Source: Deltaproteobacteria bacterium (lineage in GTDB: Bacteria; UBA10199; JACPAL01; GCA-016699445). Taken from it: a DNA stretch of 64,000 nucleotides. Under the pieces are notes generated by a model that did not search any database, was not told where the DNA came from, and worked only from the letters and a program-made list of their open reading frames with translations. Both the position numbers and the translations under genes were made by a program. Below, one piece after another: positions 1 through 53,426 of the stretch (position 1 is its first letter; each line of letters begins with the position of its first letter). The stretch covers positions 2,222,619 to 2,286,618 of the forward strand of contig CP064976.1 in the NCBI GenBank assembly GCA_016699445.1. The letters are read 5' to 3'.

Positions 1-84
1 GCAAAATGTTTTGAAACACAAGACTTAAAAGAAGGCCTCGCGGCCTTTTTGGAAAAACGCGCTGCTAATTTTAAAGGAAACTAA
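1..84 (+). CDS. Enoyl-CoA hydratase/crotonase family protein, 3' end (partial, starts upstream of window)
   Basis: Frame 1 translates to ...KCFETQDLKEGLAAFLEKRAANFKGN*, the typical crotonase C-terminal motif; stop at 82-84. Confidence 0.6.
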   Translation, partial: AKCFETQDLKEGLAAFLEKRAANFKGN

Positions 85-200
85 CCCCCACCACCGCCTT
101 CGGCGGAGCCTCCCCCATAAATGAGGGAGGCCACTAAGGACCCTCCCTTTTTAGGGGAGGGAATTTGAGATAAACGAAGGTATATGAGGGTGGGGTAGGA
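85..200. repeat. Structured intergenic repeat, family A copy 1 (multi-hairpin element, supplies RBS for the downstream gene)
   Basis: Near-identical to 3737-3853 and 4265-4397; contains CCTCCC..GGGAGG and CCCTCCC-TTTTTA-GGGAGGG hairpins; ends GGGTGGGGTAGGAG 6-7 nt before ATG at 208. Confidence 0.8.
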
Positions 201-207
201 GATAAAC

Positions 208-1350
208 ATGGACTTCAAATTATCCGACGAACAGAAAATGATTCAAAACATGGCTCGTGACTTCGCTCAAAAAGAAGTTGCGCCTAAAGCCATGGAGCTC
301 GATCACAAAAGTGAATTTCCAGCGATTCATCTCAAAAAGATGGCGGAGCTGGGATTGATGGGGATGATGGTTCCGACCGAGTTTGGAGGATCCGGACTCG
401 ATGCGGTTTCGTATGTATTGGCTTTGGAAGAAATTTCTGCGGCCTGTGCATCGACAGCGGTAACGATGTCTGTGAATAATTCACTCTACTGTGGACCGAT
501 TGTTAAATTTGGAACTCAAGCCCAAAAAGAAAAGTATGTGACACCTTTTGCCAGCGGACAAAAGCTGGGTGCTTATGCTTTATCAGAGCCTGGAACAGGT
601 TCGGATGCAGCCAATCAAAAAACAACCGCTAAAAAAGTGGGTAATAAATGGATTTTGAATGGTCGTAAAAACTTCATCACCAACGGACCTAATGCAGATG
701 CGATGGTGGTGTATGCGATGAACGATCCTGAAAAGAAGCACAAAGGGATTTCGTGCTTTATTGTTGAAAAAAACTTCCCTGGATTTTCAGTTGGAAAAGT
801 TGAAAAAAAATTAGGCATCTGTGCCTCAAGTACTTCTGAAATTGTTTTGGATAACTGTGAAGTGCCAGAGGAAAACGTGTTGGGTGAGATTGGTAAGGGT
901 TTTACGATTGCCATGGATACACTCGATAATGGACGTATCGGCATTGCCACTCAAGCAGTTGGTATTGCTCGCGCGGCTTTAGAGCAGGCGACGAGCTATT
1001 CTAAAGTGCGAGAAGCTTTTGGTCAGGCTATTTCTGAATTTCAAGCCATCCAACATTTTATTGCCGACATGGCCACACAAACAGACGCGGCCCGCATGCT
1101 CGTTTGGCGCGCAGCTTGGATGAAAGATGCAGGACTCAACATCAACCGTGAAGCTGCGATGGCAAAACTTTTTGCCTCAGAAGTTTGTGGTTTTGTGACG
1201 AATAAAGCTGTCCAAATTCACGGGGGTTATGGTTACATTAAGGAATATCCTGTGGAACGTTTGTTCCGTGATGCGAAGATTACAGAAATTTATGAAGGTA
1301 CGAGCGAAATTCAGAGACTTGTGATCGCTCGGAGTGTTTTGAAGGGTTAA
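208..1350 (+). CDS. Acyl-CoA dehydrogenase (short/branched-chain type)
   Basis: 380 aa; full-length match in character to butyryl-CoA dehydrogenases (YGGYGYIKEYPVERLFRDAKITEIYEGTSEIQRLVIAR C-terminus). Confidence 0.9.
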   Translation: MDFKLSDEQKMIQNMARDFAQKEVAPKAMELDHKSEFPAIHLKKMAELGLMGMMVPTEFGGSGLDAVSYVLALEEISAACASTAVTMSVNNSLYCGPIVKFGTQAQKEKYVTPFASGQKLGAYALSEPGTGSDAANQKTTAKKVGNKWILNGRKNFITNGPNADAMVVYAMNDPEKKHKGISCFIVEKNFPGFSVGKVEKKLGICASSTSEIVLDNCEVPEENVLGEIGKGFTIAMDTLDNGRIGIATQAVGIARAALEQATSYSKVREAFGQAISEFQAIQHFIADMATQTDAARMLVWRAAWMKDAGLNINREAAMAKLFASEVCGFVTNKAVQIHGGYGYIKEYPVERLFRDAKITEIYEGTSEIQRLVIARSVLKG

Positions 1351-1377
1351 GTTTCAACGTATTAAAAAGGAGTCTTT

Positions 1378-2126
1378 ATGAAAAACAAAATAAAAAGTCT
1401 TGGGCTCGTTTCAGCTACTTTGCTGAGCGTCGCCTTTTATCAACAACAGGCCCCGCTGGGTGCGGTGGGGGTGGTGGCGCTTCAACTATTGATACATCCG
1501 CTTCAGCGAGTGTAGAGCAAAGGCAACAAGTCGCTCTTCAAATTATATCTAACTTGGGTAGTAGTTCTTCAACAAACCCTGCGGGTTTATTATTAGGTTC
1601 TGATGCTCCTGCTTTAACTTTGGATACAACAGTTGCTGTACCTTGTGATTCAGGCTCAGCGACAATTGTTGTGAATCCAGGAACTCCAACAGCTATTACT
1701 TATGATCACTGCCGTTTTGGAGATTATACTATTGATGGTTTGGCCACGATCACAACGACGAGTTTACATCATACCACCATTACTTATACTAATGTGACTT
1801 ATTCGACCACCAGTTGTGGAGCTTATGGTTTGAATGGCACAATTGGCATTGATTCTTCAGCAGCTTCAACAACTACGTTTTTACCTGTGACTGTGACTTA
1901 TGGTTTAAGCACACAACGTGGTGGAAGTGTTGGAACCATTACAGGAACAGTGACACATAATACCGGTGATACTTTGTCAGGTAACATGAATGTGACCAAT
2001 CCTAATTTTACCTGCAACTACAGCAACACAGCTCTTACATGTCCTGCTTTGACTTCAGCCTGCAGCTTGTCTTCAGCTAGCTTGTGTAATGGAAATGATT
2101 TTCGAACGGATATTTGCTCTCTCTAA
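1378..2126 (+). CDS. Secreted Thr/Ser/Cys-rich protein, probable lipoprotein; frame change near 1445-1460
   Basis: AAGGAG RBS then ATG at 1378 encodes signal peptide MKNKIKSLGLVSATLLSVAF in frame 1; the Thr-rich body (ORF 1554..2126) is in frame 0 and open upstream (..PAGCGGGGGASTIDTS..); a 1-nt indel in the GCCCC run would join them. Confidence 0.45.
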
Positions 2127-2128
2127 AA

Positions 2129-3736
2129 ATGGAAAAACAATTTAAAGAACGCCTTCCCGAATTTACGACCCTCTCATCCAAAAAGATCGAGAGGGTCTAT
2201 AATTCTGACTCGATTGCTCATCTTAATCCTGAAAAGGATTTAGGCGAGCCTGGAGAGTATCCTTTTACGCGTGGCGCTTACCCGACCATGTATCGCGGTC
2301 GTCATTGGACCATGCGGCAGTTTGCAGGTTTTGGAACAGCAGCAGACACCAATGAACGCTTTCATTATCTTTTGAATCAAGGGCAGACAGGTCTTTCGAC
2401 AGCTTTTCATTTTCCCACATTGATGGGTGTAGATTCCGATAGTCCGCGTGCGCGCGGTGAGGTGGGTGTGTGTGGTGTAGCGATTGATACGCTGCATGAC
2501 ATGGAAGTCCTCTTTAAAGGAATCAATCTCGAAAATGTGAGTACGTCGATGACGATTAATACGCCTGCGCCGATCTTACTCGCGATGTATTTGGAAGTGG
2601 CGGCTAAACAAAATTTTCAGCAGAAAAAATTATCTGGAACGGTGCAGAATGACGTCTTGAAGGATTTTATTGCTCAAAAAACTTGGATCTATCCACCCGC
2701 TCCCGCCATGCGTTTGTGTACGGATCTTTTTGATTATTGCCAAACAGAAGTGCCTCGTTGGCATCCCGTTTCAATTTCGGGATATCACATTCGTGAAGCC
2801 GGTTCGACGGCAGCTCAAGAGTTGGCTTTTACCCTTCGAGACGGAATTGAGTATGTGGATTATTGTGTGAAGCGTGGAATGAAAGTTGACGAGTTTGGTC
2901 CCAAACTTTCTTTTTTCTTTAATGCTCAGAGTGATTTTTTTGAAGAGATTGCCAAGTACCGTGCGGCTCGTCGTATTTGGGCACGCACCATGAAAGAACG
3001 TTTCGGTGCGACTAATCCCGAAGCGATGCGTGTGAAGTTTCATACACAGACGGCTGGATGTAGTTTGACGGCTCAACAGCCCATGAACAATGTTGTGAGG
3101 ACGACACTGCAAGCTCTCTCAGGTGTGTTGGGTGGGACTCAGTCATTGCACACCAATTCGCTTGATGAAACTTTAGCGTTACCCACAGAAGCTTCTGTGC
3201 GCATTGCTTTGCGTACACAACAAATTATTGCCTACGAAAGTGGTGTGACCAATACCGTTGATCCTTTTGCAGGATCTTACTTTGTTGAAAAACTGACTGA
3301 CGACATTGAACGAGAAGCTTTGGCCTATTTTAAAAAAATCGACGACATGGGTGGGATGGTGCGTGCGATTGAACTTGGTTACCCTCAAAAAGAAATTATT
3401 GAAGCGGCTTACCGTTATCAAAAGCAGTTGGAGACTAAAGAAAAAATCATGGTGGGTGTACAAGACTTTGTGATTGAAAATGAGCCTCCGATTGACGTAC
3501 TCCGCATCGACCCTCAAGTGGAACAAAGACAGATTGAAAGTACACGGCAGGTAAAAGCCAAACGCAATAACGCTGCGGTGAAAGCGGCTTTAAGTGATTT
3601 GAAAAAAACAGCCGAAGGTTCGGCTAATCTCATCCCCAATATCCGCAATGCTGTTCGTGAGTATGCGACATTGGGAGAGATGATTGATACGATGAAGGAA
3701 GTGTTCGGGGCTTATAAGGATCCGGGGCATTATTAG
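2129..3736 (+). CDS. B12-dependent acyl-CoA mutase, catalytic (large) subunit, isobutyryl-CoA mutase-like
   Basis: ATG at 2129; methylmalonyl-CoA mutase family TIM-barrel domain without fused B12 domain; Phe in TMRQFAGF and Gln in DFIAQKTWIYPP at positions of MCM Tyr89/Arg207. Confidence 0.85.
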   Translation: MEKQFKERLPEFTTLSSKKIERVYNSDSIAHLNPEKDLGEPGEYPFTRGAYPTMYRGRHWTMRQFAGFGTAADTNERFHYLLNQGQTGLSTAFHFPTLMGVDSDSPRARGEVGVCGVAIDTLHDMEVLFKGINLENVSTSMTINTPAPILLAMYLEVAAKQNFQQKKLSGTVQNDVLKDFIAQKTWIYPPAPAMRLCTDLFDYCQTEVPRWHPVSISGYHIREAGSTAAQELAFTLRDGIEYVDYCVKRGMKVDEFGPKLSFFFNAQSDFFEEIAKYRAARRIWARTMKERFGATNPEAMRVKFHTQTAGCSLTAQQPMNNVVRTTLQALSGVLGGTQSLHTNSLDETLALPTEASVRIALRTQQIIAYESGVTNTVDPFAGSYFVEKLTDDIEREALAYFKKIDDMGGMVRAIELGYPQKEIIEAAYRYQKQLETKEKIMVGVQDFVIENEPPIDVLRIDPQVEQRQIESTRQVKAKRNNAAVKAALSDLKKTAEGSANLIPNIRNAVREYATLGEMIDTMKEVFGAYKDPGHY

Positions 3737-3853
3737 GGCCCCCACCACCCCTTCGGGGAGCCTCCCCCATAAATGAGGGAGGTCACAAAGGACCCTCCCT
3801 TTTTAGGGGAGGGAAATTGAGAGAATCGAAAGTAGTGATGGGTGGGGTAGGAG
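3737..3853. repeat. Structured intergenic repeat, family A copy 2
   Basis: GGCCCCCACCACCCCTTCGGGGAGCCTCCCCCATAAATGAGGGAGG...GGGTGGGGTAGGAG; ends 7 nt before ATG 3860. Confidence 0.8.
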
Positions 3854-3859
3854 AAAATT

Positions 3860-4264
3860 ATGGAAAGAAAACTTAGAATACTAGTCGCTAAACCCGGTCT
3901 TGATGGACATGACCGTGGAGCTAAAATTATCGCACGTGCTTTACGTGATGCTGGTTTTGAAGTGATTTATACAGGTCTACACCAAACCCCTGAAATGATC
4001 GCTGATGCCGCTTTGCAAGAAGACGTCGATTTAGTGTCTCTCTCTATTTTATCCGGAGCTCACAATCACTTAATGCCCGAAGTGATTCGTCTTTTGAAAG
4101 AAAAGGGAATGGGGGATGTGTCCATCATTGGTGGTGGTATCATTCCTCAAGAAGATATTGTGACGTTGAAACAACAAGGCGTGAAAGAAATTTTTACTCC
4201 AGGAACCGACACGCGTGATGTTGTGAAGTGGATCGAAACCAATATCCAACCACGAAGTTTATAA
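3860..4264 (+). CDS. Acyl-CoA mutase B12-binding (small) subunit
   Basis: 134 aa with cobalamin-binding DxHxxG motif ([15 protein letters not shown]) and Rossmann-like B12 domain. Confidence 0.85.
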
Positions 4265-4397
4265 TCCCCCACCACCCCTTCGGGGAGCCTCCCCCATAAA
4301 TGAGGGAGGCCAAAAAACAAAAAATCGCAAAATAAATGACCCTCCCTTTTTAGGGGAGGGAAGTTCCTATCATGAAATTATTGAGGGTGGGGTAGAG
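4265..4397. repeat. Structured repeat, family A copy 3 (with ~25-nt internal insertion); 3' arm overlaps the UbiA-like gene C-terminus
   Basis: Same 5' half as copies 1-2; the GGGTGGGGTAG arm read on the minus strand encodes the terminal ..LPHPQ* of ORF 4378..5238. Confidence 0.75.
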
Positions 4398-5238
4398 AAA
4401 TCCACACGCCTACAAAAAACAAGATCGAAATAATCCCGTTTACATTAAAGAAGGCCGCGTTGACCTTCGAAAGATCTTTGTCTGACACTAACGAATGTTC
4501 ATATAAAAACAATCCAGCAATTACGCTGAGAGTGATGAAATAAGTCCAGCCAAAGTGGTTTAAGATTCCGAAAGCTAAGAGCAGGAGTAAGGTGATCAGG
4601 TGAAAGAGGCGTGCGAGCAGTAGAGCTTTGCTAATACCCAGAGCCACCACCATTGAATGCAATCCTGATTGTTTATCAAAGTCATAATCTTGAGTAGCAT
4701 AAATCAAATCAAAACCCGCGACCCATAAAGTGACCGCAATACCTAAAAGGACAGGGATGAAAGCCACTTCTCCACGCATGGCGACCCAAGCGCCAATGGG
4801 AGACATGCCTAAAACACAGCCTAAGATAATATGAGAAAGAGATGTGAATCGTTTTGCCAACGAATAACCATAAGCGGCGCTCAGCGCGATGGGTGAGAGT
4901 TGAAATGCCAGAGTATTAATTTGTGTGCATAAAATGACAAAGAGGATTCCACAAAAAATAGAGGTGATCAGGACTGATTGTTTCGAGAGAATATTTTGAG
5001 GAATGTGACGCACCGCTGTTCGTGGATTTTTGGCATCGATGTCGGCATCAACCCAACGATTAAAAGCCATGGCTCCAGTGCGCAAAGCGACCATGGCTAA
5101 AACCATCAAAAATAAAATCCGAAAAGGCGGATGTCCTTGAGAGGCAATCATGAGAGAGGCGAGAGCAAAGGGAAGGGCGAAAATCGAATGCGAGAACTTC
5201 ACCATTTCGCCAAATTGTCTGATTTTCTTAATTTCCAT
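4378..5238 (-). CDS. UbiA-family aromatic prenyltransferase (MqnP/4-hydroxybenzoate polyprenyltransferase-like)
   Basis: 286 aa polytopic membrane protein with NRWVDADID (NxxxDxxxD) motif. Confidence 0.8.
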   Translation of the reverse strand: MEIKKIRQFGEMVKFSHSIFALPFALASLMIASQGHPPFRILFLMVLAMVALRTGAMAFNRWVDADIDAKNPRTAVRHIPQNILSKQSVLITSIFCGILFVILCTQINTLAFQLSPIALSAAYGYSLAKRFTSLSHIILGCVLGMSPIGAWVAMRGEVAFIPVLLGIAVTLWVAGFDLIYATQDYDFDKQSGLHSMVVALGISKALLLARLFHLITLLLLLAFGILNHFGWTYFITLSVIAGLFLYEHSLVSDKDLSKVNAAFFNVNGIISILFFVGVWISLPHPQ

Positions 5239-5782
5239 ACCGAGGCCTCAAGTCATTCCCAACCCCCAAATGATCCAAGACGCGAGCAATCACGGTATCT
5301 ACCGCTTCTTCAATCGTTTTGGGTTTTGAATAAAACGACGGAATCGCGGGAATGATCTCAGCTCCGGCCAAAGCCAAAAGGCGCATATTCTCAATATGAA
5401 CCAGGTTGAAAGGCGTCTCGCGAGGGACGAGAATCAACGTCTTCTTCTCTTTCAGAAACACATCGGCAGCCCGTGTCAGCAAGCTATCGGAATAGCCATG
5501 AGCGATCCGCCCCAAAGTGCCCATGCTGCACGGGATGATGACCATAGCGTCATAATGAGCTGTCACGGCGGAACCACTCGCAAAGGGTGCAGAAAAATCT
5601 TTTTGCCCAAAAAATGGAACGTCGAGAGATGTATAATCCGTGCTCATCTCATCAAGGCCGATTTGCAAAGCATTAGGACTCGCCGTGAGTTCGAGAGAAT
5701 GCCCAGCCTCTTTGAGGCAGTGAATAGTGCGCGTGGCATAAATAGCTCCGCTAGAGCCGCTGATTCCGAGGACAATTTTCAT
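5228..5782 (-). CDS. ubiX: Flavin prenyltransferase UbiX
   Basis: 184 aa, MKIVLGISGSSGAIYA N-terminus and full-length UbiX/Pad1 flavoprotein character; overlaps start of downstream UbiA-like gene. Confidence 0.85.
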   Translation of the reverse strand: MKIVLGISGSSGAIYATRTIHCLKEAGHSLELTASPNALQIGLDEMSTDYTSLDVPFFGQKDFSAPFASGSAVTAHYDAMVIIPCSMGTLGRIAHGYSDSLLTRAADVFLKEKKTLILVPRETPFNLVHIENMRLLALAGAEIIPAIPSFYSKPKTIEEAVDTVIARVLDHLGVGNDLRPRYGN

Positions 5783-5792
5783 AGGATGATTT

Positions 5793-7007
5793 TCATGCTT
5801 TCTCCTCAGGTGGTAAATGCCAAGGCTGTATGTTCATTCCAAGAAAGGGATAAGGATTTTCAAGAGGGACCATGAGGTAAAACTGGTTTGCTTTCTTCCC
5901 TAATTCTTTTTTGGCTTTCTCGAGTTGTTTCAACGTATCTTGAGTGATGGTGCGTGTACTTTTGATTTCATAAACGTCCCAGAGTGTTTGATTTTGGACC
6001 ATCAGATCAATTTCCAACGACGGCGTCTTGAGATAATAGTGTGGAGGCATTTCCCCTTGGCTCGTCCAATGTTTGATCAGATTAGTCACGACCAAGGTTT
6101 CAAAAAGAGGCCCAAACTGTGGAGAGCCTGCGATGAGTGAGGGATCCCGAAACCCCATTAAATAACAGGCAAGACCGACATCCATAAAATACATCTTGGG
6201 TGACTTCCGGATCCGTGACGAAATATTTTCATAAAAGGGTTCCACAAGATGGACTTGATAGGTTTGCACGAGAAGATTCAGCCAGCGCTGAGCGGTAGAA
6301 GGAGAGATGTTGGCGTCTCTGGCAAGATCACTGACGTTAAGGATTTGCCCAGTGCGGATAGCACACAATCTCACAAAACGTTCAAAGGAAAGAAGGTCAG
6401 CTACTTGTGCCAAAGAACGGATATCTCTCTCGAGATATGTATTCAAATAACTTCGATGCCAATCCGTAGGAAGGATATTTTGATCCCTCCATAATTCCGG
6501 AAAAAAACCTCGAAATAAAATTTGGGATAACGTGTCTTCCTGATGCCATTCTAAATCAATGGATGCGGAAATTTCTTTAACCGTAAGGGGATAAAGTGTG
6601 ATCAACCCAACACGTCCAGCCAAAGACTGAGTTACTTGTTCCATCATTAAAAAATTCTGGGAACCCGTCAGGATATACTGACCCTTTTCATCACGTTTTG
6701 CGTCGATACGACTTTGGAGATAGCTGGTCAGGTCAGGAACATTTTGGAATTCGTCAAAAATTACCGGAGGAGGGTAGCGATCCAAAAAGCTTTTGGGATC
6801 TTGCAGTACTTGCGCTCTCAGATCCAGGTCTTCAAGAAGGACATAATGATGAGTCTTGCAGTGCTCTTTGATAAAAGAGGTCTTTCCGACTTGTCGAGCC
6901 CCTGTCAGGATAATAGCGGGAAAAGACTTGAGAAAACGATCAAAAACACCCTCAAATTGCCTCGTAAACATTTGAAAAATAATAATATATGCAAATTGAT
7001 TATTCAA
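5793..7007 (-). CDS. AAA+ ATPase with DUF4143-type C-terminal domain
   Basis: Walker A GARQVGKTS near N-terminus; ~400 aa architecture typical of the ATPase/DUF4143 family; true start may be an internal Met. Confidence 0.7.
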   Translation of the reverse strand: MNNQFAYIIIFQMFTRQFEGVFDRFLKSFPAIILTGARQVGKTSFIKEHCKTHHYVLLEDLDLRAQVLQDPKSFLDRYPPPVIFDEFQNVPDLTSYLQSRIDAKRDEKGQYILTGSQNFLMMEQVTQSLAGRVGLITLYPLTVKEISASIDLEWHQEDTLSQILFRGFFPELWRDQNILPTDWHRSYLNTYLERDIRSLAQVADLLSFERFVRLCAIRTGQILNVSDLARDANISPSTAQRWLNLLVQTYQVHLVEPFYENISSRIRKSPKMYFMDVGLACYLMGFRDPSLIAGSPQFGPLFETLVVTNLIKHWTSQGEMPPHYYLKTPSLEIDLMVQNQTLWDVYEIKSTRTITQDTLKQLEKAKKELGKKANQFYLMVPLENPYPFLGMNIQPWHLPPEEKA

Positions 7008-7024
7008 TAATTAATTTGCATGAA

Positions 7025-7714
7025 TTATTTATCCGCCACGATTAAATGCGAAATACCACCCGTTTGTGCGGTAATTTTGATGTTCTTAAAGCCTGTTTGT
7101 TCTAATAATTTTCGGTACTCTTCCGTCGTGTAAAATTTCCGCACGGAATCGCGCAAATGTTCATAAGCCGACTTATTCTTAGACACTAAGGATCCTAATA
7201 CTGGAATGACAACTTCCGCGTAGGTGATGTTGAAAAGCTTCGGGAGAAGCTCCGTGGGCTTGAAGAATTCTAAGACCACGAGACGTCCGCCGGGTTTTAG
7301 CCATTCGTAAATATTCTGGAGTGCGAGGGGATTGTCTCCCACATTGCGCATTCCATAAGCCACCATCGCACCATCATAAGAAGAGCGGGGGATATCCAAG
7401 GCCAGTATATCCCCAATCTGAATTTGAATCTGCTTGCGTTCTTCTGGCGTCAAAAGGGCTTCACCTTTTTTGAGCATGTTTTCAGAAAAATCCACAGCGG
7501 TGATCTGAGTCATGGGATTGGTTTCCAAAAGTGTTTTGGAGAGAGCCAAAGTCCCGGCACAGAGATCCAGGATTTTCTGAAATTTTTTCGAATCAGAAAA
7601 TTCTTTCATCCCTTGCCGCCGCCACCGACGGTCGACTTGAAAAGAAAGCAGCGAATTCAACAAATCATATTGAGGCGCGATGGAGTCAAAAAGTTTCTGG
7701 ATGTGTTCGGACAT
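7025..7714 (-). CDS. ubiE: Demethylmenaquinone/ubiquinone C-methyltransferase UbiE/MenG
   Basis: 229 aa class I SAM methyltransferase with UbiE-type motifs (LDLCAGTL, VAYGMRNV). Confidence 0.85.
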   Translation of the reverse strand: MSEHIQKLFDSIAPQYDLLNSLLSFQVDRRWRRQGMKEFSDSKKFQKILDLCAGTLALSKTLLETNPMTQITAVDFSENMLKKGEALLTPEERKQIQIQIGDILALDIPRSSYDGAMVAYGMRNVGDNPLALQNIYEWLKPGGRLVVLEFFKPTELLPKLFNITYAEVVIPVLGSLVSKNKSAYEHLRDSVRKFYTTEEYRKLLEQTGFKNIKITAQTGGISHLIVADK

Positions 7715-7746: not shown

Positions 7747-9810
7747 CTATCTTCCATTAGGTCTTGGAAATGGTCCGGCATCTGCCGCAAAACCTATACG
7801 TGTCGTTTCAGCTCTGAGTAATGCTACTCTCATTTGTCTGGCACGAAAAGCGTCTGGATGCTTGGCTTCTGCTAAATCATCAGGTTTGAAATGTTTTACG
7901 AGTGCGGCAAAAGCTGGACGGACTCCCAATGGTGAATAGCCAAACATATTATGAGGAGATCGAAATCCTGTAAGATCACGAGGTATATCGGGTGAAGGCA
8001 CAGCACCCACATGGAAATTATTAGCCATCATGATGCGTTCAGCATCAGGAATCTTATCATCTCTGACATGCATGCCAGCGATATTACGCCGTGGAATGTA
8101 TTCATTGGGCACGAAAAGCGCTCCCTTCCGACGAAGAGGCGCATAAGGTGAAGGGAAAGGAAATGAAGAGATTCGTGTGCCTGAATCAAATAAGGCATTA
8201 CTTCTTCCTCGTTTGATATTAGTTTTCATTATTTCATAAATCGCTGAAGGATCTTTGCGACTTAAAAATCCTCCTGTTGTATTCAATAAATGCCCTCTCA
8301 TCACAGGAACAAAATTAAATATTTTTTCGGCGATGATAGAGTCTGGTTCAAGACCGAAAAGATATAAAGAACCAATGATGCCACAATAATCAAAAGCTCC
8401 TGTGTGATCCCAGGCTGAAATATTCCCTTGGGAAGGTTGTCGTTGTTGATCATGTCCTGAAAAAAGAAGATCAGCTCCTAGGATATTTTCGATTCCTTCG
8501 GGAACTCGATGCCTAAACATAAAATCTTTATCTGATTCACTTCCAATGATTCGGATTCCTGAGTAAGCATTGACAAGCATGGGTAGCGCCCATCGATTCG
8601 CTATCTGATGGTCATACTCTTGCTGAGTCAGTTTGCCATTTCTCAAATCGCTAATAAGATGTCGAGGGTGAGATGTGAGCTCATATAATAACTCCAGTGA
8701 CTGCATTCCCGTAGGCCCTTGATCGATGCGGTACGCTTGAGTTCTGGAAAGAAAAGTTGTGATGGGAATTTGAATATCCCATTTTTTAAGTATTTTTTGA
8801 GCGGCTTCATGTAAGTTCCAAAGTGCATTAAAACTTTTTTCTTCTCGTTTTTTTCGTTCATTTTCACGAGCGTTTTTATCTCCACCAATCATGGTTTGAT
8901 TATAGGCTATGTAGTTTTCAGTGAGAGATTTGTAAGCATTTCGAGCTACTGTAAACTCATCACATTCTTGAGACGTAGCTCTGTCTTTAAATTTGAGAAA
9001 AACATTGTCGTAAACAGTCAGCTGCCATTCGAGCTCAATATTTTCTATTTTGAGATGAAGCGGAAGTGCTTCTTGCCAAAGCTTATACTCTCTTTCAAAT
9101 GAGTTTTCTTGAGTACTAGATGGTGAAGCAAAAAATAATTCACGATAATCTTCATTAGCTTCCAACGCTTGAGCGTATAAGCCCGAGAGTTTGTCTTGTA
9201 TCTCTTGTGGTAAAACTGCCATGACGCGATCGTAAGCTGCTTCACTCCATTCAAGATCCGCTGCATGAAAACGTTCATAAGACGCCCGTCTTTCAGCTGT
9301 TTCAATGTGTGAAGGAATCGCTTCATAAACAACTTTTTCTTCAACAAGTTTTCTAACGGCTGCAGGATCGGTGACCAGATGGGCAGGAGGGGGTGGGGAT
9401 TTAGGAAATTCGCGAATCAAGCGAGCTCCTAAATACCCTAAAACTGTAGAACTTTTTCTTCCCAAGGTATCAATCGCTTCAACTCCTGGAGCTTCACTCA
9501 CAGAAACATTCAAAGCTTCTGCAATATTTTTATTAAAAATAGGAGCCAAAGAAGGGTGATAACTATGAGGTTGAAGCGTCGTAAAAAAGTCTCGTGCTTC
9601 AGGGATGGTTTGAGGAGGCGTTGATGACAATCCCACTAGATTTTGATCCAAAGATTTTAGCTCTTGATGTAAGTACTGAGCGATAGCCATTATTGGCGCT
9701 TCGCTCAGTCTATCTGTTTTCTGTTGGGCTAAAAAATCACGAAAATTAAGTGTGGATAAAAAATGGCTCGTGGCAAAAGTCAGGGCTTGGTTTGTTGAAG
9801 GGGAAATCAT
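7747..9810 (-). CDS. Hypothetical protein, 687 aa, no recognised domain; polar uncharged N-terminus
   Basis: Long ORF, 28-nt spacing to upstream gene, N-terminus MISPSTNQALTFATS. Confidence 0.6.
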   Translation of the reverse strand: MISPSTNQALTFATSHFLSTLNFRDFLAQQKTDRLSEAPIMAIAQYLHQELKSLDQNLVGLSSTPPQTIPEARDFFTTLQPHSYHPSLAPIFNKNIAEALNVSVSEAPGVEAIDTLGRKSSTVLGYLGARLIREFPKSPPPPAHLVTDPAAVRKLVEEKVVYEAIPSHIETAERRASYERFHAADLEWSEAAYDRVMAVLPQEIQDKLSGLYAQALEANEDYRELFFASPSSTQENSFEREYKLWQEALPLHLKIENIELEWQLTVYDNVFLKFKDRATSQECDEFTVARNAYKSLTENYIAYNQTMIGGDKNARENERKKREEKSFNALWNLHEAAQKILKKWDIQIPITTFLSRTQAYRIDQGPTGMQSLELLYELTSHPRHLISDLRNGKLTQQEYDHQIANRWALPMLVNAYSGIRIIGSESDKDFMFRHRVPEGIENILGADLLFSGHDQQRQPSQGNISAWDHTGAFDYCGIIGSLYLFGLEPDSIIAEKIFNFVPVMRGHLLNTTGGFLSRKDPSAIYEIMKTNIKRGRSNALFDSGTRISSFPFPSPYAPLRRKGALFVPNEYIPRRNIAGMHVRDDKIPDAERIMMANNFHVGAVPSPDIPRDLTGFRSPHNMFGYSPLGVRPAFAALVKHFKPDDLAEAKHPDAFRARQMRVALLRAETTRIGFAADAGPFPRPNGR

Positions 9811-9838
9811 AAAATCCTCATTTTTATAGTTTTAGTTT

Positions 9839-11647
9839 TTATGCGGCTACTTGAAGAGGTATCGACTTATCGTATTCATACTTTTTCACAAGTTTAGAGA
9901 CTTCAAATAGAAGTTGTTGGATAGCCGCTTCATCTTTTTGTGAAGAGGTCAGATGTCTTTTCATTATTGATAGCAATCGTCGTTTCATTTCTTCTCGATC
10001 ATCTTTTGCTTTTTGAGGAGGGATAGCTCGGATGCGAGCAATGATAGTGAAATAACGTTCTTCTTCTGAAGTAAGTTTGGTTATTTCATCTTCACTTATT
10101 TCTGTATTGAGAGCCGATGACCATTGAGTGGCGAGATTTGCAAGATACTGATCTGCAGGGCTGTAAGCACGTATAAGTGCATGGACTTTATCTATGATTT
10201 CTTGATCGGGAGTGTCTGCTGTTACATAAAAACCACCCGTCTGACGAAAATCAATAGTTCCTCCCGTAATGATAGGCTGAATGAATGGAAAAGTGTCTGT
10301 GAATTTTGGATCAATCGTAGTGCCTCCTAAAATATCAATGACAGAAATAAATACAGCTTTATTCATTTTTGCAGAAGTAGCTTTTGCAAGTTTAATTAAG
10401 CCAAAAATATTATCATAACGTTCAGGATGTTCTAATTTTACCACATTGTCATACATCGTGGGTATATCTAGAGTACCATTGTCTCGATAAACACGTGGAG
10501 CTCGTCCTCCTTGAACAAAAACGGCTGGCTCAATACCGAGTTTTTCAACGTTGTTTACAGTTTCATTAAAAGCTTCGGTTTGTGAGTCTTTGTTAGTGTT
10601 ATCACCATTCTGTTTAATCGCTGGTGGGAGAGCTAATACATCCATTAACCAAGAAAATAGAATCATTTTAGCTGCACGATTATTTCTAAAATTACTAATA
10701 TTTGCCATGAATCGTATTAAAGGACGAAGCGCAAATAAAGTGTAATTCGTCCACATCGTATGTCCATAAAGAGCATGAAAGATAGGTGTTCCTTTTGAAA
10801 CGTTTATTAAATTATCGAAACCCTGAGATGTCATACTCATCTTGTAGATTCGTGCTTGTCTTTGAGCCCAATAACCTAAAGCGTACCCAATGGCTTGTGT
10901 AAACTCAGGTGTGGCTTTTGCTTTACCTCCCATGAAAACTGTAGCGATATTGACAACAGTTTGAACAAATCCTTCCGCATGGACAGACGTGCGTCTAGCA
11001 AGTCCGAAAATTGTAGAAGCAGTATTAAGAAGTCCTGCATAGAAAGCTTTTTCAGAAGGAATTCTTTCTACACCCTCTCCATAGCGAGGCATGTTATTTT
11101 CTAACAAGTCTTGATGTTCAAACTCTTTAGGAACATCAGCCCCCAAAACTCCCAGGGCATTATGCTCAAACCTTTCCCAAGCATCCATTGTCAGCATCGC
11201 TCCTGCCGCCATTTGATTTTTGATGATAGCGTTTTCAACTCTATTGCTGTGATCTAAGGCTGCTAATGTAGAACCTAAAACGGCAGCAGCTGCCATTTGA
11301 GCTGGGTGAGAACCATAAGCATAAGCTATAAAAGGCATTAGCAAAGCTCTCCAGGGACTTAATTTCGAGTCCATTCTTCCAAATCGTTCGTTCCAATAAG
11401 CGAGTGCAGAACTTCTTTCTGGATTCATTTGCTTTCTTAAATCATCGGGCAGGATGGGACGAAATCCTCTGGCTAAGAGTCTGAGAACGGGTACCGTATA
11501 AGTAAGAGTCATAAGAGCATCAAGTGCGTAATTCGTTCCTGTCAAAACAGGTGCTGCTTGAGCTAAAGCTTCAAGGGGTTGAGTGTAGGCCGCTATTCCA
11601 ACAGCACCAGGAAGTACGCGAGCTGTAATAGAGTTTGGAGATGTCAT
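9839..11647 (-). CDS. Hypothetical protein, 602 aa, no recognised domain; polar uncharged N-terminus
   Basis: Long ORF, N-terminus MTSPNSITARVLPGAVGIA; AT-rich 200-bp upstream spacer. Confidence 0.6.
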   Translation of the reverse strand: MTSPNSITARVLPGAVGIAAYTQPLEALAQAAPVLTGTNYALDALMTLTYTVPVLRLLARGFRPILPDDLRKQMNPERSSALAYWNERFGRMDSKLSPWRALLMPFIAYAYGSHPAQMAAAAVLGSTLAALDHSNRVENAIIKNQMAAGAMLTMDAWERFEHNALGVLGADVPKEFEHQDLLENNMPRYGEGVERIPSEKAFYAGLLNTASTIFGLARRTSVHAEGFVQTVVNIATVFMGGKAKATPEFTQAIGYALGYWAQRQARIYKMSMTSQGFDNLINVSKGTPIFHALYGHTMWTNYTLFALRPLIRFMANISNFRNNRAAKMILFSWLMDVLALPPAIKQNGDNTNKDSQTEAFNETVNNVEKLGIEPAVFVQGGRAPRVYRDNGTLDIPTMYDNVVKLEHPERYDNIFGLIKLAKATSAKMNKAVFISVIDILGGTTIDPKFTDTFPFIQPIITGGTIDFRQTGGFYVTADTPDQEIIDKVHALIRAYSPADQYLANLATQWSSALNTEISEDEITKLTSEEERYFTIIARIRAIPPQKAKDDREEMKRRLLSIMKRHLTSSQKDEAAIQQLLFEVSKLVKKYEYDKSIPLQVAA

Positions 11648-11850
11648 GATAAAATTCCCTTTCTATTAAGATTCTTCGTAATTCTTTTAAAGAAGTTGTG
11701 TTTTGTGTGAGAAAAAAATGAGATAATAAAAATTTTGTAAATATTATAGAGGGTTAGGATGAAAATTTTGTTTAAAAAATAAAAGTAAGCCTACGAAAAG
11801 AAAAAAAGATGGTGAGTTGAAGCTGGGACTGTTTGTTCTGAAAAAAACGA

Positions 11851-13548
11851 TTAGTAAAACCGAGTATTATTATTAGCCGCCTGAATTTTTCCTAATGTCA
11901 TCGCTTGCATGCGGATGGCAGCAATTTCTAAATTGCGGGCTGTTTCTGCCGCTGTGTCGCCTTGATAGTCACTTACTTTCAAAATCCCGCAAGGTGCTAT
12001 CATGACCGTTTGGTTTTGTTTAACCCCTTGACGTAAGACTTGTTTGATATTGGTTGGTAAAATTTGGCCTGTACCGCAGATAGCATAGACGACAACATAA
12101 GTATCATTTGAATATTTTTCATTTGTATGTGCTGCAAAATTAAAAGCTCCGGACCGAAAACGTAGAGCTCCAGTTTCTTCATTTCTATCGGGAGTCTCTT
12201 TTCGTTTGCCTTCAGGCATAACCCATACAGTAGCACTTTGATCTCCAGAATTATCCACCCATTGAGACGCTGTTTTTTCTAATTCTAAATAAGCAGCATT
12301 TCCACCTTCTCTATCCAGATAAAAATGAGGAAATGTTCTTATCGTGCTGTCGGCACTCCAAAGATCTCGATTTGCAGGGTGTAAAAAAGGGTTTTTGCCT
12401 AAAACAAGAGATGTCTCCAGTTCTTTTTTAGAAGCAAAAGCCCCAGGCTGAACTCCAAATAATAAAATGGGATCCAGATGAGCTAAGTGATTACTAATGG
12501 CGATAATTTTAGATCCTTTAGCGATCAATTGTTGAATTACTTCCATCAGGTTTAAATTGAGAAAAATAGGGCGCCAATTTTGATGTTGAAGTAAACTTAA
12601 AGACCCAACGCCTAAAAGTTTTTTATAATCGTGACGAGAGGGCGTATTTAGTGTGCTCGATGCCGCTAAAGCGGCAATATGCATAAAATCAGCAATAAGC
12701 GTTGTTAGAGCCCAATGACTATAATAATGTTTGCCTCCAGCCCCACAACTATCTCTAAAAGCCTCAAAAAAAGCATCCGCATCTGTCATCGTATCTCTAT
12801 GAGCAGAGTCTCGAGGAGGTAACTCTCCAAAATAATCGTCAAAGTCTCTTGTACTAATAGGTCCTTGGCTGACATGTTTTAAAAACCGTTTTACATGAGG
12901 GTGGTCTTGAAAAGCTTCGATGCCTCCACGAGCTAATATTTCTTCAGCTACTTTGGGATCTTTAGAGAGTAGTAAATGTGCAAGTTCAAAAGGTGTGTTT
13001 AAAGTGGGGTTTGCTTTTGCTAATTTTAAACTTTGAACGACACTTCTCCACAATCCATGATTAAATGTATGGGGGCTGGTTTGTGTGGGTAATTCCGATA
13101 ACCATTTTTCAGCTTCTGCTTGAATCCCACTAATATCAATAAGACTATCTCGAGAGTATTCAAAAAGCGCTCTTCTAACTTCTTCTTTCTGGCTTAAAGC
13201 TTTGCAAACACCCGCATGATCGGCAATTTCTCTAAGAGCCGACGCGGATTGATGAATATCAGAAGACGTAATAAGCTGACGATGTCGAAGTTTATTATTT
13301 AAGCGTTGTTTTTCAGGAAGATCGGGATGTTTTCTTAGGGTCCGTGTATCGATCGCAGAAACATATTCATTGGTTATTCCTAAAATAGACGACATTGTAT
13401 TGGTATAAGGATGTTTTGTCCCAGGAGTTAGGCGAAACAAATGATCGATCAAATGACTAAGTGCACGTTGGACATCAAGTCCGCTTTGGACACCATCCGC
13501 TAAAGCGGGAGAAAGAAAAACTCGGGTTGGTGCTACTGTTGATATCAT
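11851..13548 (-). CDS. Two-domain protein: unknown N-terminal domain + C-terminal lysophospholipid acyltransferase (PlsC/GPAT-like) domain
   Basis: HX4D motif in IAISNHLAHLDPILL, motif III-like VWVMPEGKRK, motif IV-like TYVVVYAICGTGQILP; paralogous to 15525..17198. Confidence 0.7.
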   Translation of the reverse strand: MISTVAPTRVFLSPALADGVQSGLDVQRALSHLIDHLFRLTPGTKHPYTNTMSSILGITNEYVSAIDTRTLRKHPDLPEKQRLNNKLRHRQLITSSDIHQSASALREIADHAGVCKALSQKEEVRRALFEYSRDSLIDISGIQAEAEKWLSELPTQTSPHTFNHGLWRSVVQSLKLAKANPTLNTPFELAHLLLSKDPKVAEEILARGGIEAFQDHPHVKRFLKHVSQGPISTRDFDDYFGELPPRDSAHRDTMTDADAFFEAFRDSCGAGGKHYYSHWALTTLIADFMHIAALAASSTLNTPSRHDYKKLLGVGSLSLLQHQNWRPIFLNLNLMEVIQQLIAKGSKIIAISNHLAHLDPILLFGVQPGAFASKKELETSLVLGKNPFLHPANRDLWSADSTIRTFPHFYLDREGGNAAYLELEKTASQWVDNSGDQSATVWVMPEGKRKETPDRNEETGALRFRSGAFNFAAHTNEKYSNDTYVVVYAICGTGQILPTNIKQVLRQGVKQNQTVMIAPCGILKVSDYQGDTAAETARNLEIAAIRMQAMTLGKIQAANNNTRFY

Positions 13549-13688
13549 TTAGAAAGCTCTTTTCCAGAAAACTTTTTATTAGTATTACATTGATGTCTTA
13601 AAAGTACGTTTAATCATTATCGACATTATAAATAAAAAAGTTGCCTAATATTTTTTTAAAAACTTTTATCCTTTTTAGATATTTCTCC

Positions 13689-15464
13689 TCATTTATTTCC
13701 TAAATAATAAGCCAATACGGGGGCTAATGAGTGGTAAATCATTTGAAAAGCTACCAGTTGAGAGGCTCGTGTGAATGCCATAGTTGGTTGGCTTCGCAAA
13801 ACTCTTCCGGTAATACCTGATCCTCGTGCATAAGCAATTTCTTGTAGAGCCGCTAGAATGACATAAGGAAGAGCTGCTGCCAAAGCGAAGGTCGCGATAA
13901 GAGCAGTAGGATTATTGAGCGGTTGTAAGAAGATTTCAGTTGCCACAAGGGGTGCTGTGATTCCCAGCGCGGAACGTGAGTCTTGGTACGTTTCTTTTTG
14001 TGGAGATAGAGACATAAGAAGAGAGGTCAAAATTCCTGCGGCTGCAGCCCTTAAAGTTTCATGAGTATTATGAGTCGGTGCTCCTGGGATATGTTGCTGT
14101 AAAAAGGATCCAGCAAAGGCTCCAGATGTCAAACCAACAGCTTCAGAAATTAAGCTTGCAGCTTTTTGGGGTATCGTTGGTAGTATAAGCGGATTTTCTA
14201 TTTGCTCACGAGTGATGAGAAAATGCCCTGGATGTCTTGGGTCGGATCTTTTAATGGTTCGATAACCGGCCAGTTCATGTACAATGCTTCCGTTATGTTC
14301 TTGGACCCACTTAAGAAGTTGAGGCTTGGAAGCATTGACAGCAAAGGTAATTCCATTTTTTCTTTCGGGATTAGCATGGTCTAAGGCAAATTGAAGCATG
14401 TCCATATCTGACGGGGAGTCGGTATACGCAGCAACTGTTTCCAGTTTTAATCCACGTTCTTTAAATAAATCTGAAAGTCTTGTGAGTGCCCGAGCTTTTT
14501 CAACATCATGAAGGTAAACCATTTCTCCTGATAGTTTTTGAGTTTGAGGATCTACGGTAAAACTAGTCCCCATGACATTTTCAGGCGGCAAGCCTAAATC
14601 GCGAGCATGATCTTCAATAAGAGGTTTAGGGGAGGCGGAAACAAGAAGGACAAGATGGCCCGCTTCATAATGCCGCACAATTTCATCACAGAGAAATTCA
14701 CTAATACCTTCTCGTCCATGAAGCCGATGCCAATGAGAGAGACTGGCTCCAATTTTGAGAGGGTCCATATCTTTGATCGTTTCAGCAATGAACTTTTGTA
14801 CTTCTTCACGATTGATATGTCCTTCTCTTACTTCTTTTATCCGGGCTTTAAGTGAGGGGATAAGGATCTTTAAAATCTCTTTCTCCGCACCGGTTTGTTC
14901 TTCTAATGTAGTTTTTTTAAATAAGACTTTGAAGGCAATACGCCCAATCCAATCCATCCATCCTTGTCCTGCTCGAGTCGTTCCATCAACGTCAATCAAA
15001 ACAACTTTTGGTGAGTTATCTTTGTATTTTTCAGGGTGAGTCAGGACATCTCCCAATGAAATAGGGGTCCGATAAGAGGAAGCATTGATGTCGACAATTC
15101 CTCGGATTTTGGCCCTTGCAACAGCGGTTTTCAATAAAATGCCTAGGGTGGTATCATAGGGAATTTTAGTGATAGTTTCTCCAAGTAAAATTTGGAGAGT
15201 GTGTTCTGGTCTCGTTAGTGGTGTTAAAAATTGAGAAGTTGTGTCTGTATTTGGTAAAAAAGTTTTCAGGGCATTAGGGATATATTCTGCAGGAACCCCT
15301 TGAGCCCCAAGTGCTTTAACGGCTGCGGTAATATCATTTTGAGCAAAAGCATCATTAATAATCGGTGTTAAGTTCTCTCTAATATTCGGAGGAAGATGAG
15401 GCATGTAAGCTCTAAAATCAAATATAGAACCTGCTGTGAGAGTGGGTCCTGTAATAGTATTCAT
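13689..15464 (-). CDS. HAD-IB superfamily phosphatase domain protein with hydrophobic C-terminal region
   Basis: Motif I VVLIDVDGTTRAG (DxDGT), motif II LVLLVSASP, motif IV AAYTDSPSDMDM; C-terminal 150 aa hydrophobic. Confidence 0.7.
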   Translation of the reverse strand: MNTITGPTLTAGSIFDFRAYMPHLPPNIRENLTPIINDAFAQNDITAAVKALGAQGVPAEYIPNALKTFLPNTDTTSQFLTPLTRPEHTLQILLGETITKIPYDTTLGILLKTAVARAKIRGIVDINASSYRTPISLGDVLTHPEKYKDNSPKVVLIDVDGTTRAGQGWMDWIGRIAFKVLFKKTTLEEQTGAEKEILKILIPSLKARIKEVREGHINREEVQKFIAETIKDMDPLKIGASLSHWHRLHGREGISEFLCDEIVRHYEAGHLVLLVSASPKPLIEDHARDLGLPPENVMGTSFTVDPQTQKLSGEMVYLHDVEKARALTRLSDLFKERGLKLETVAAYTDSPSDMDMLQFALDHANPERKNGITFAVNASKPQLLKWVQEHNGSIVHELAGYRTIKRSDPRHPGHFLITREQIENPLILPTIPQKAASLISEAVGLTSGAFAGSFLQQHIPGAPTHNTHETLRAAAAGILTSLLMSLSPQKETYQDSRSALGITAPLVATEIFLQPLNNPTALIATFALAAALPYVILAALQEIAYARGSGITGRVLRSQPTMAFTRASQLVAFQMIYHSLAPVLAYYLGNK

Positions 15465-15524
15465 AATTATCCTTTCATGAGTTTCTGTAGTCGCAGGTGA
15501 TTTGTAAAAGTTTCGAATATTTTT

Positions 15525-19470: not shown

Positions 19471-20484
19471 ATGAAGAGAATTGATTCTAAACAGGCTCTA
19501 AATATTTGGGAAAGTGATTGGACGTCACTTCGATCTCAATCTCATGAAGCGCGTTGTGAACATTATCCTGATGGGCAGGCGAGCTATGTTGTCATGCGGA
19601 TTGTGAGCTATACCAATGTTTGTGTGGCGGATTGTTCTTATTGCGCCTTCTACCGTCGACCCAATGACGATGGGGCTTATGTCCTTTCGAAGGAAGATAT
19701 TTTTTCTAAAATTGACGGACTTCTAGCTGTTGGTGGGTCGGTGGTGGCTATGGAAGGGGGATTTAATCCCAAGCTTAAGATTGAACATTACGAAGATCTT
19801 TTTGCGTCCGTGCGTAAGCGCTATGGAGATAAGATTGAGATTTATGGGTCTACGATTGTCGAAGTGATTTTCATTGCGAAGAGTTCGCGTATTTCACTGG
19901 AAGAAGCTCTCATCCGTCTCAAAGAAGCTGGATTGCGTTGGATTCCGGGTGGTGGTGCTGAAATTTTAACCGATGCCTGGCGCGCAAAGCTTTCTCCTAA
20001 AAAATATTCGGTGAAAGATTATATTGAAGGCATGCGAGTGGCACAAAAACTTGGACTCGGTACCACAGCGACGATGGTGATTGGTTTTGGTGAAACAGTT
20101 GCCGACCGTATTGAGCATCTCGAACATATCCGTCGTCTTCAAGATGAGACAGGTGGTTTTGCGAGTTTTCTTTTGTGGACCTACCAACCCCTCAACACTC
20201 CCATGGGAGGCTCTCTCACCAGCAATGACGACTATCTTCGCTCAGTCGCCTTAAGCCGTTTGTATTTGGATAACATCCCTGTGATTCGTGCGTCTTTTCT
20301 CACTCAATACGACAAAGGCCCCGAAGCTCTCACTGCCGGTGCTCATGATTTTGATATCCCTCTAGAAGACCAAGTCACCCAACTGGCCGGCGCCAAGATT
20401 GAAGAAAATGTCGATCGTGTGTTGGAGTGGGTAAAGAAGTCTGGGATAACCCCTCAGAAAAGGCTCCCATTTTCTTTGAAATGA
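19471..20484 (+). CDS. Radical SAM menaquinone biosynthesis enzyme, MqnC/MqnE family (futalosine pathway)
   Basis: 337 aa; CxxxCxxC cluster motif in SYTNVCVADCSYCAF. Confidence 0.8.
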   Translation: MKRIDSKQALNIWESDWTSLRSQSHEARCEHYPDGQASYVVMRIVSYTNVCVADCSYCAFYRRPNDDGAYVLSKEDIFSKIDGLLAVGGSVVAMEGGFNPKLKIEHYEDLFASVRKRYGDKIEIYGSTIVEVIFIAKSSRISLEEALIRLKEAGLRWIPGGGAEILTDAWRAKLSPKKYSVKDYIEGMRVAQKLGLGTTATMVIGFGETVADRIEHLEHIRRLQDETGGFASFLLWTYQPLNTPMGGSLTSNDDYLRSVALSRLYLDNIPVIRASFLTQYDKGPEALTAGAHDFDIPLEDQVTQLAGAKIEENVDRVLEWVKKSGITPQKRLPFSLK

Positions 20485-46779: not shown

Positions 46780-46851
46780 GCGGGAGTAGCTCAGTGGTAG
46801 AGCGCCACCTTGCCAAGGTGGATGTCGCGGGTTCAAATCCCGTCTCCCGCT
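46780..46851 (+). tRNA. tRNA-Gly (anticodon GCC)
   Basis: Cloverleaf: acceptor GCGGGAG/CTCCCGC, D-arm GCTC..GAGC, anticodon loop TTGCCAA, T-arm GCGGG-TTCAAAT-CCCGT; no encoded CCA. Confidence 0.85.
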
Positions 46852-53408: not shown

Positions 53409-53426
53409 ATACAAAAGGGAGGTTGT

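Follow-up and report, generated by a model that had tools for sequence, protein, structure and literature searches.

In methylmalonyl-CoA mutase (MCM; EC 5.4.99.2), the residues Tyr89 and Arg207 bind the carboxylate of the substrate. In isobutyryl-CoA mutase (ICM; EC 5.4.99.13) these two positions are taken by Phe80 and Gln198 of the large subunit IcmA, and the fused enzyme IcmF carries the same Phe/Gln signature. In Streptomyces, the two ICM genes do not lie side by side, and the enzyme is connected with the supply of polyketide precursors (see PMC2847961). According to PMC7238569, which cites Jost et al. (2015), the subfamilies of acyl-CoA mutases are defined by two specificity-determining sites, and the Tyr/Arg combination is the mark of MCM. 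The ~1,100 aa of IcmF form one chain with an internal MeaB-like G-domain (PMC10481361). A cluster encoding a split ICM in Syntrophothermus lipocalidus was predicted to route isobutyrate into beta-oxidation (PMC5017805). Here, we report on a split acyl-CoA mutase encoded in a 64-kb stretch of DNA, called the window in the following, which belongs to a 2.75-Mb contig of a metagenome-assembled genome with the NCBI label 'Deltaproteobacteria bacterium'. The genes for its large, substrate-binding subunit (2129-3736) and for its small, cobalamin-binding subunit (3860-4264) are part of a single operon on the + strand that spans the first 4.4 kb of the window. We consider it probable that the enzyme is an ICM-type mutase (EC 5.4.99.13) which feeds isobutyryl-CoA derived from valine or isobutyrate into beta-oxidation as butyryl-CoA. 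This assignment is based on the Phe/Gln signature, on the difference in gene context between Phe/Gln- and Tyr/Arg-type mutases, and on the adjacent acyl-CoA dehydrogenase (ACAD), which resembles short-chain acyl-CoA dehydrogenase (SCAD). An initial annotation of this DNA had already pointed to butyryl/isobutyryl-CoA rather than propionate metabolism, and this proposal is supported by four discriminating alignment columns, by the position of the protein in a tree, by gene context and by the SCAD-like ACAD.

Mutase subunits and their substrate-site residues

The two subunits are encoded by separate open reading frames (ORFs) with 123 nt between them; the ORF coordinates and the residue strings quoted in the initial annotation proved to be exact. 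The large subunit (535 aa, QQR80092.1) starts with ATG and matches the Pfam family MM_CoA_mutase (PF01642), its residues 14-527 covering positions 2-512 of the 512 model positions (E 5.6e-223), so that the substrate-binding TIM-barrel domain is present in full, and it reaches 754 bits with TIGR00641 at a cut-off of 303.8. The small subunit (134 aa) matches the Pfam family B12-binding (PF02310) and TIGR00640 (173 bits, cut-off 57.45); NCBI calls its gene one residue longer as QQR82060.1. It keeps the DxHxxG motif in the form D15-G-H17-D-R-G20, with the codon of His17 at 3908-3910; this is the His-on cobalamin motif. Its best solved relatives are 2yxb, a coenzyme B12-dependent mutase (2.1e-43), followed by the small subunit of 2-hydroxyisobutyryl-CoA mutase (HCM; 4r3u_C, 2.1e-38). 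In the NCBI records, QQR80092.1 is named 'methylmalonyl-CoA mutase family protein', QQR82060.1 'cobalamin B12-binding domain-containing protein' and the ACAD of the operon, QQR80089.1, 'acyl-CoA dehydrogenase'.

The substrate-site residues were assigned by gap-free phmmer alignment to MCM of Propionibacterium shermanii (1req_A). Phe65, encoded by TTT at 2321-2323 within the string WTMRQFAGF, aligns with Tyr89, and Gln183, encoded by CAA at 2675-2677 within the string DFIAQKTWIYPP, aligns with Arg207. The SEQRES index of 1req_A equals the gene numbering minus one, and the MCM numbering is fixed by the entry of the Y89F mutant, 5req_A, which differs from 1req_A solely in the Tyr89 column, where it has Phe for Tyr. 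The structures of human and Mycobacterium tuberculosis MCM (2xij and 6oxc) place Phe65 and Gln183 in the same way, again without gaps, so that the assignment of Phe to the Tyr89 site and of Gln to the Arg207 site, already made in the initial annotation, is borne out by all four entries. The residues Q173, Y219 and H220, which correspond to the general catalytic residues Gln197, Tyr243 and His244 of MCM, are conserved and invariant in the alignment described below. Taken together, the predicted product is a complete two-subunit mutase dependent on adenosylcobalamin (AdoCbl), in which the carboxylate-binding pair is replaced by Phe/Gln. Ethylmalonyl-CoA mutase acts on a carboxylated substrate as well, and the loss of Tyr/Arg therefore also argues against this identity.

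In a homologue search over 5.8 billion proteins, the best 120 sequences were ranked by score with no selection for the motif, and in all 120 position 65 is Phe and position 183 is Gln. When one genome per species was scanned, at least 600 stretches encoding a relative came up, from which 80 loci were kept; these derive from Acidobacteriota, Myxococcota, Nitrospira, Actinomycetes, Chloroflexi, Ignavibacteria, Bacteroidetes, Bacillota, Bathyarchaeia and other groups. An alignment of 208 sequences was built from 184 Phe/Gln-type sequences, HCM (Ile/Gln) and 23 Tyr/Arg-type sequences. Of the latter, 21 are split mutases encoded at the loci, and the other two are the second mutase of L034 and human MCM. 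At the diagnostic columns of this alignment, the large subunit has Phe and Gln, not Tyr and Arg. Since Phe65 and Gln183 are invariant in the 183 other Phe/Gln-type sequences, they are not there by chance. Four columns separate the two types, with Phe/Tyr at position 65, Leu/Gln at 98, Gln/Arg at 183 and Lys/Gly at 184 (Phe/Gln versus Tyr/Arg type), and the large subunit shows the Phe/Gln state in all four, L98 being encoded at 2420-2422 and K184 at 2678-2680; HCM shares three of them. Position 94 (codon 2408-2410), the site of Asp118 in MCM, is variable among the Phe/Gln-type sequences (His in 82, Asp in 100, Tyr in 1 and Ala in 1) and always Asp in the Tyr/Arg types and HCM. It was considered as a new marker of specificity and rejected, since His and Asp switch even between relatives that are 80% identical; position 94 is thus probably not a determinant of specificity.

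Overall similarity separates the two types far less clearly. The mean identity to the large subunit is 62.1% for the Phe/Gln-type and 60.8% for the Tyr/Arg-type sequences, with a mean of 61.0% between the groups, and the Tyr/Arg split mutases, at 57-61%, are about as close to it as most Phe/Gln members. Profile scores (939 bits with a hidden Markov model of the Phe/Gln type versus 869 bits with one of the Tyr/Arg type) favour the Phe/Gln type but discriminate weakly, because human MCM likewise scores higher on the Phe/Gln profile. In a neighbour-joining tree computed without the signature columns, the protein lies within a clade of 182 Phe/Gln sequences with 19 Tyr/Arg sequences as its sister clade, while a small archaeal clade mixes both types. 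The Phe/Gln clade has a bootstrap value of only 0.40, and the tree sets the protein no more than shallowly apart from genuine split MCMs. The assignment to the ICM type consequently rests on signature and context and not on the tree, given this bootstrap value and the nearly equal mean identities. In the same tree, the Bathyarchaeia loci L013 and L049 (Phe/Gln) cluster jointly with L024, L052 and L079 (Tyr/Arg) at a bootstrap of 0.415, which hints at an independent switch of specificity or an old duplication in that lineage. A search with an actinomycete Phe/Gln member as query listed only metagenome proteins of Gaiellaceae with at least 93% identity, and tblastn against a plasmid collection found Streptomyces homologues which were of the Tyr/Arg type. 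No record annotated as IcmF was found among the 100 matches listed, beyond which lie 328 weaker records.

Among solved structures, the large subunit ranks HCM 4r3u first (E 1.1e-171, 575 bits, 51.5% identity), followed by MCM structures (~1e-143, 481 bits; human MCM is 45% identical). The fused IcmF is more distant (2.9e-86, 293 bits). These similarities bear on the possibility that the protein is a genuine split MCM of the archaeal or Firmicute-like kind acting in propionate/succinate metabolism. It would agree with the name 'methylmalonyl-CoA mutase family protein' given by the Prokaryotic Genome Annotation Pipeline (PGAP), with the 57-61% identity to Tyr/Arg split mutases that stand in clear methylmalonyl-CoA contexts, and with a score for the NCBIfam MCM equivalog (620 bits, cut-off 876) above that for the IcmF model NF045497 (376 bits, cut-off 1500), both scores being under their cut-offs. 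Against it stand the failed equivalog cut-off, the replacement of both carboxylate-binding residues, the Phe/Gln state in all four discriminating columns, and the gene context, in which an epimerase is found at 15 of the 21 Tyr/Arg fetched loci but neither an epimerase nor a carboxyltransferase in the 64 kb analysed here. We regard an MCM function as very improbable.

Gene context and the predicted route from isobutyryl-CoA

The operon encodes, in this order, an enoyl-CoA hydratase (ECH), a short-chain ACAD, a lipoprotein-like protein, the large subunit of the mutase and its small subunit. The start of the window cuts the crotonase-family ECH gene, of which the 3' end is present at 1-84 (+), that is the last 27 codons, with the translation AKCFETQDLKEGLAAFLEKRAANFKGN*. 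This fragment shows 100% identity to the C-terminal end of a complete 260-aa ECH_1/ECH_2 protein encoded at the same position in L001, a relative with an 89% identical mutase, and in L091, a near-identical strain with ~97% nucleotide identity; the synteny of ECH, ACAD and mutase is kept in both. The ACAD gene follows at 208-1350 (+) and encodes a protein of 380 aa (QQR80089.1) with three Pfam ACAD domains, 95% identical to its counterpart in L001. Of the neighbours named in the initial annotation, the ACAD is thus present in full and the hydratase only as this 27-residue fragment. The best solved relatives of the ACAD are rat and human SCAD (436-424 bits), and it scores lower with the short/branched-chain enzyme ACADSB (312 bits), with isovaleryl-CoA dehydrogenase (~300 bits) and with the isobutyryl-CoA dehydrogenase ACAD8 (294 bits). 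It also resembles butyryl-CoA dehydrogenases of the Bcd type (5ol2, 4l1f).

The gene context of the two mutase types was compared at 84 related loci, 63 of the Phe/Gln and 21 of the Tyr/Arg type, with up to 10 kb fetched on each side of the mutase. Within 5 kb and on the strand of the mutase, genes for an ACAD, an ECH or a thiolase occur at 29 of the 63 Phe/Gln loci and at none of the 21 Tyr/Arg loci (Fisher p = 3e-5). Conversely, a homologue of methylmalonyl-CoA epimerase was found anywhere in the fetched locus in 0/63 Phe/Gln and 15/21 Tyr/Arg cases, and an epimerase or carboxyltransferase, counted together, in 11/63 versus 16/21 (p = 1.8e-6); the 64-kb window contains no homologue of either. 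Cultured organisms illustrate these contexts: in Ilyobacter polytropus a Tyr/Arg mutase is followed by meaB, mce, the beta subunit of an acyl-CoA carboxylase and a Na+-translocating decarboxylase, in Brevibacillus laterosporus another is followed by mce and a carboxyltransferase, and Deinococcus sp. KNUC1210 has a Phe/Gln mutase with meaB and an ACAD close by. Phe/Gln split mutases adjoining beta-oxidation genes are spread over more than 15 phyla, Bathyarchaeia included. Gene context settles the function better than the tree does.

A gene for the G-protein chaperone MeaB lies on the same strand within 5 kb at 9/63 Phe/Gln and 7/21 Tyr/Arg loci (Fisher p 0.10). The initial annotation had stated that none is encoded in the window, and a six-frame scan for the P-loop motif, a phmmer search with a MeaB seed and a Pfam search agree on this. 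The seed was checked against 2qm7, 8dpb and 2www, and phmmer was run on every stop-to-stop ORF with 80 aa or more; the Pfam search took in 8 ORFs from the first 7.7 kb and, further downstream, 46 ORFs with 150 aa or more. This absence is uninformative, because 54 of the 63 Phe/Gln loci likewise have no MeaB gene within 5 kb on the strand of the mutase and the search covers 64 kb of the genome; if a MeaB-type G-protein is required for loading of the cofactor, it would be encoded outside the window.

From these data we propose that the substrate is a non-carboxylated acyl-CoA, most likely butyryl/isobutyryl-CoA, and that the mutase would interconvert isobutyryl-CoA and n-butyryl-CoA by a radical 1,2-shift. 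Valine or isobutyrate would give rise to isobutyryl-CoA, which the mutase would convert to butyryl-CoA; the dehydrogenase encoded at 208-1350 could then form crotonyl-CoA, and the hydratase 3-hydroxybutyryl-CoA, which would be processed further to acetyl-CoA. Such a route would bypass methacrylyl-CoA and propionyl-CoA. The catabolic direction is suggested by the predicted co-transcription of the mutase with a crotonase-family hydratase and a short-chain ACAD. An acetoacetyl-CoA-type thiolase encoded at 56229-57404, 52 kb away from the operon, could close the proposed pathway from butyryl-CoA. One may go a step further and regard the ECH-SCAD-ICM operon as a self-contained B12-dependent shunt from isobutyryl-CoA to butyryl-CoA that replaces the valine route via methacrylyl-CoA and propionyl-CoA; it could usually work without a linked G-protein chaperone and could represent a widespread and largely unannotated form of branched-chain carbon catabolism. 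We offer this extension as a speculation that is rather unlikely to hold; the enzyme type as such is already known and very widespread.

The choice of substrate and the direction of flux both allow other readings. A Phe/Gln mutase might act on another non-carboxylated acyl-CoA, such as isovaleryl/pivalyl-CoA or the isoleucine-derived 2-methylbutyryl/n-valeryl-CoA. IcmF converts pivalyl-CoA and isovaleryl-CoA besides isobutyryl-CoA (PMC10481361), sub-specificities are plausible in a Phe/Gln family that is very large and diverse, and it is in the Phe/Gln-type sequences only that position 94 varies between His, Asp, Tyr and Ala. Nevertheless, the toggle between His and Asp among 80% identical relatives is unlikely to mark specificity, the adjoining ACAD is SCAD-like and not of the isovaleryl-CoA or short/branched-chain type, and pivalyl-CoA would be a dead end for the ACAD/ECH pair, so that a different substrate seems improbable to us. 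The ICM reaction could also be run anabolically, in which case isobutyryl-CoA made from butyryl-CoA would serve as the primer of iso-branched fatty acids or as a source of valine. In favour of this, the reaction can run freely in both directions, the conversion of butyrate to isobutyrate is known in anaerobes (PMC10832561, PMC7764203), the Bcd-type enzymes that the ACAD resembles (5ol2, 4l1f) work reductively, and several proteins with acyltransferase domains are encoded downstream. On the other hand, neither EtfAB nor FabH nor branched-chain amino-acid genes are found in the operon or in the operons of its relatives, the recurrence of thiolase, ECH and ACAD genes beside such mutases in different phyla agrees with degradation, and a published genomic reconstruction assigns a split ICM to the degradation of isobutyrate (PMC5017805). 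We likewise judge an anabolic role improbable.

Several points count against the assignment as a catabolic ICM-type mutase. The direction of flux is read from context alone, no assayed enzyme of this exact clade was found in the literature, and the Phe/Gln signature correlates with specificity and does not prove it. The fused, characterised IcmF is more distant from the large subunit than MCM is (293 versus 481 bits), the mean identities to Tyr/Arg and Phe/Gln mutases are nearly equal, and the bootstrap value of the Phe/Gln clade is low. In addition, the pathway is incomplete within the 64-kb window, since a 3-hydroxybutyryl-CoA dehydrogenase, a branched-chain 2-oxoacid dehydrogenase, an adenosyltransferase and MeaB are not encoded there.

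Structured repeats, operon integrity and neighbouring genes

A structured element of ~120 nt is present in the window in three copies, all of them on the + strand of the mutase operon. Copy 1 (85-207) lies between the ECH and ACAD genes, copy 2 (3737-3859) between the genes of the two mutase subunits, and copy 3 (4265-4377) follows the last gene at the 3' end of the operon; in copy 3, hairpins 2 and 3 are set apart by an insertion of 20 nt. Each element has an outer stem (CCCCCACC...GGGTGGGG) around two to three hairpins. One hairpin shows a compensatory change among the copies (CCGCC/GGCGG versus CCCC/GGGG), and the predicted folds have free energies of -56.1 kcal/mol (z -4.25) for copy 1 and -51 kcal/mol (z -2.3) for copy 2. 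Copies 1 and 2 both end with GGAG(N7)ATG and would therefore provide the gene that follows with its ribosome-binding site. The element was considered as a possible cobalamin riboswitch or other known RNA, but Rfam gave no match for it (E <= 1, positions 1-4500), the only hit in the whole window being tRNA-Gly. In the 97% identical strain L091, copies 1 and 2 are absent and copy 3 is kept, which suggests that the element is mobile or polymorphic in the manner of repetitive extragenic palindromes or miniature inverted-repeat transposable elements (REP/MITE-like). The spacer between the genes of the large and small subunit is an unrelated 119 nt in L091 and 8 nt in L001. A related repeat element is found in an unrelated metagenome contig, L087.

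The lipoprotein-like gene at 1378-2126 (+), followed by translation in three frames, begins with an ATG at 1378, changes frame at a T-run near 1430-1450 and continues as the ORF 1554-2126. In L091 it is intact and encodes a Ser/Thr/Cys-rich protein of 249 aa with a signal peptide and the lipobox ...GPAGC. L001 does not have the gene, and only 5 nt separate the ACAD stop from the mutase start there. The gene product has no match in Pfam or NCBIfam. The interruption at ~1430-1450, together with the two strain-specific repeat insertions and the missing chaperone, raises the question whether the locus is decaying and non-functional. We think this very unlikely: both mutase ORFs are intact, as are the ACAD and the ECH fragment, with proteins 89-95% identical to those of relatives, all invariant residues of the family are retained, and each inserted repeat provides a GGAG ribosome-binding site at normal spacing. 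Moreover, the frameshift falls on a T-run which, going by the two translations, has one base less than its counterpart in L091, and it may be a sequencing error.

Other genes of the window lie beyond the operon. Scattered genes resembling the futalosine route to menaquinone follow downstream at 4378-7714, 19471-20484 and 26212-26952; they encode a UbiA/MqnP-like prenyltransferase, UbiX, a UbiE/MenG methyltransferase, a CofH/MqnC-like radical SAM protein and a VitK2_biosynth protein, and an AAA_14/DUF4143 ATPase gene is inserted among them. On the - strand, five large genes (557-687 aa) stand in a row at 7747-17198, and this run is conserved in L001 and L091. Two of the products (7747-9810 and 9839-11647) have no Pfam match, two (11851-13548 and 15525-17198) carry a PlsC-type acyltransferase domain behind a long N-terminal region, and one (13689-15464) has a HAD domain. 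Further features are a tRNA-Gly(GCC) at 46780-46851, toxin-antitoxin-type genes at 47207-47671 and 61855-62334 for an antidote of the HI1420 type and a PIN-domain protein, a split class-I fumarate hydratase at 48645-50269 and a TRAP transporter with a TAtT component at 52419-55980. An ORF at ~62700-64000 (+), which runs past the window end, carries eukaryote-like leucine-rich repeats of the ribonuclease-inhibitor type, as seen in the frame translation only.

Annotation value and comparison with known mutases

The practical value of these findings lies in annotation, because both types share the name 'methylmalonyl-CoA mutase family protein'. Overall similarity cannot split them (62% versus 61%), but columns 65, 98, 183 and 184 together with gene context do so cleanly. 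To read such genes as MCM in uncultured bacteria and archaea would wrongly imply a propionate/succinate metabolism and would miss a B12-dependent route from valine or isobutyrate to acetyl-CoA. To the specialist this is unsurprising, as the Phe/Gln signature is in the literature and syntrophs have already been predicted to carry split ICM clusters.

Compared with the described systems, the enzyme resembles, in its two-subunit architecture, IcmA/IcmB of Streptomyces cinnamonensis (EC 5.4.99.13), with a large subunit of ~535-566 aa and a cobalamin subunit of ~135 aa, and both enzymes would act on substrates without a carboxylate. In contrast to Streptomyces ICM, the two subunit genes are adjacent here and lie inside a beta-oxidation operon. 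HCM of Aquincola tertiaricarbonis (HcmA/HcmB, 4r3u) is split in the same way and shares Gln183, Lys184 and Leu98, but its Ile90 and Asp117 (HcmA numbering), seen as Ile and Asp in 4r3u, are replaced by Phe65 and Ala92. The Asp of HCM at the position of Ala92 reportedly binds the hydroxyl group of the substrate, a finding ascribed to Kurteva-Yaneva and co-workers in 2015. The enzyme described here is predicted to have the same chemistry as IcmF of Cupriavidus metallidurans (4xc6), which is AdoCbl-dependent as well, but it is split, has no GTPase domain and is accompanied by no G-protein gene in 64 kb. The split Tyr/Arg MCMs, such as ILYOP_RS13925 of I. polytropus and EX87_RS02395 of B. laterosporus, have the same architecture and the same PGAP name, and they differ by Gln98 and Gly184 and by their company of epimerase, carboxyltransferase and often MeaB, with an ACAD, ECH or thiolase beside none of the 21 loci examined. 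The same metabolic logic underlies the predicted cluster Slip_0757-0760 of S. lipocalidus, in which isobutyryl-CoA would likewise be passed as butyryl-CoA into beta-oxidation (PMC5017805); genes for an adenosyltransferase and a MeaB-like protein belong to that cluster, whereas the operon of the window has neither and instead combines the split mutase with an ECH, a SCAD and a lipoprotein-like gene.

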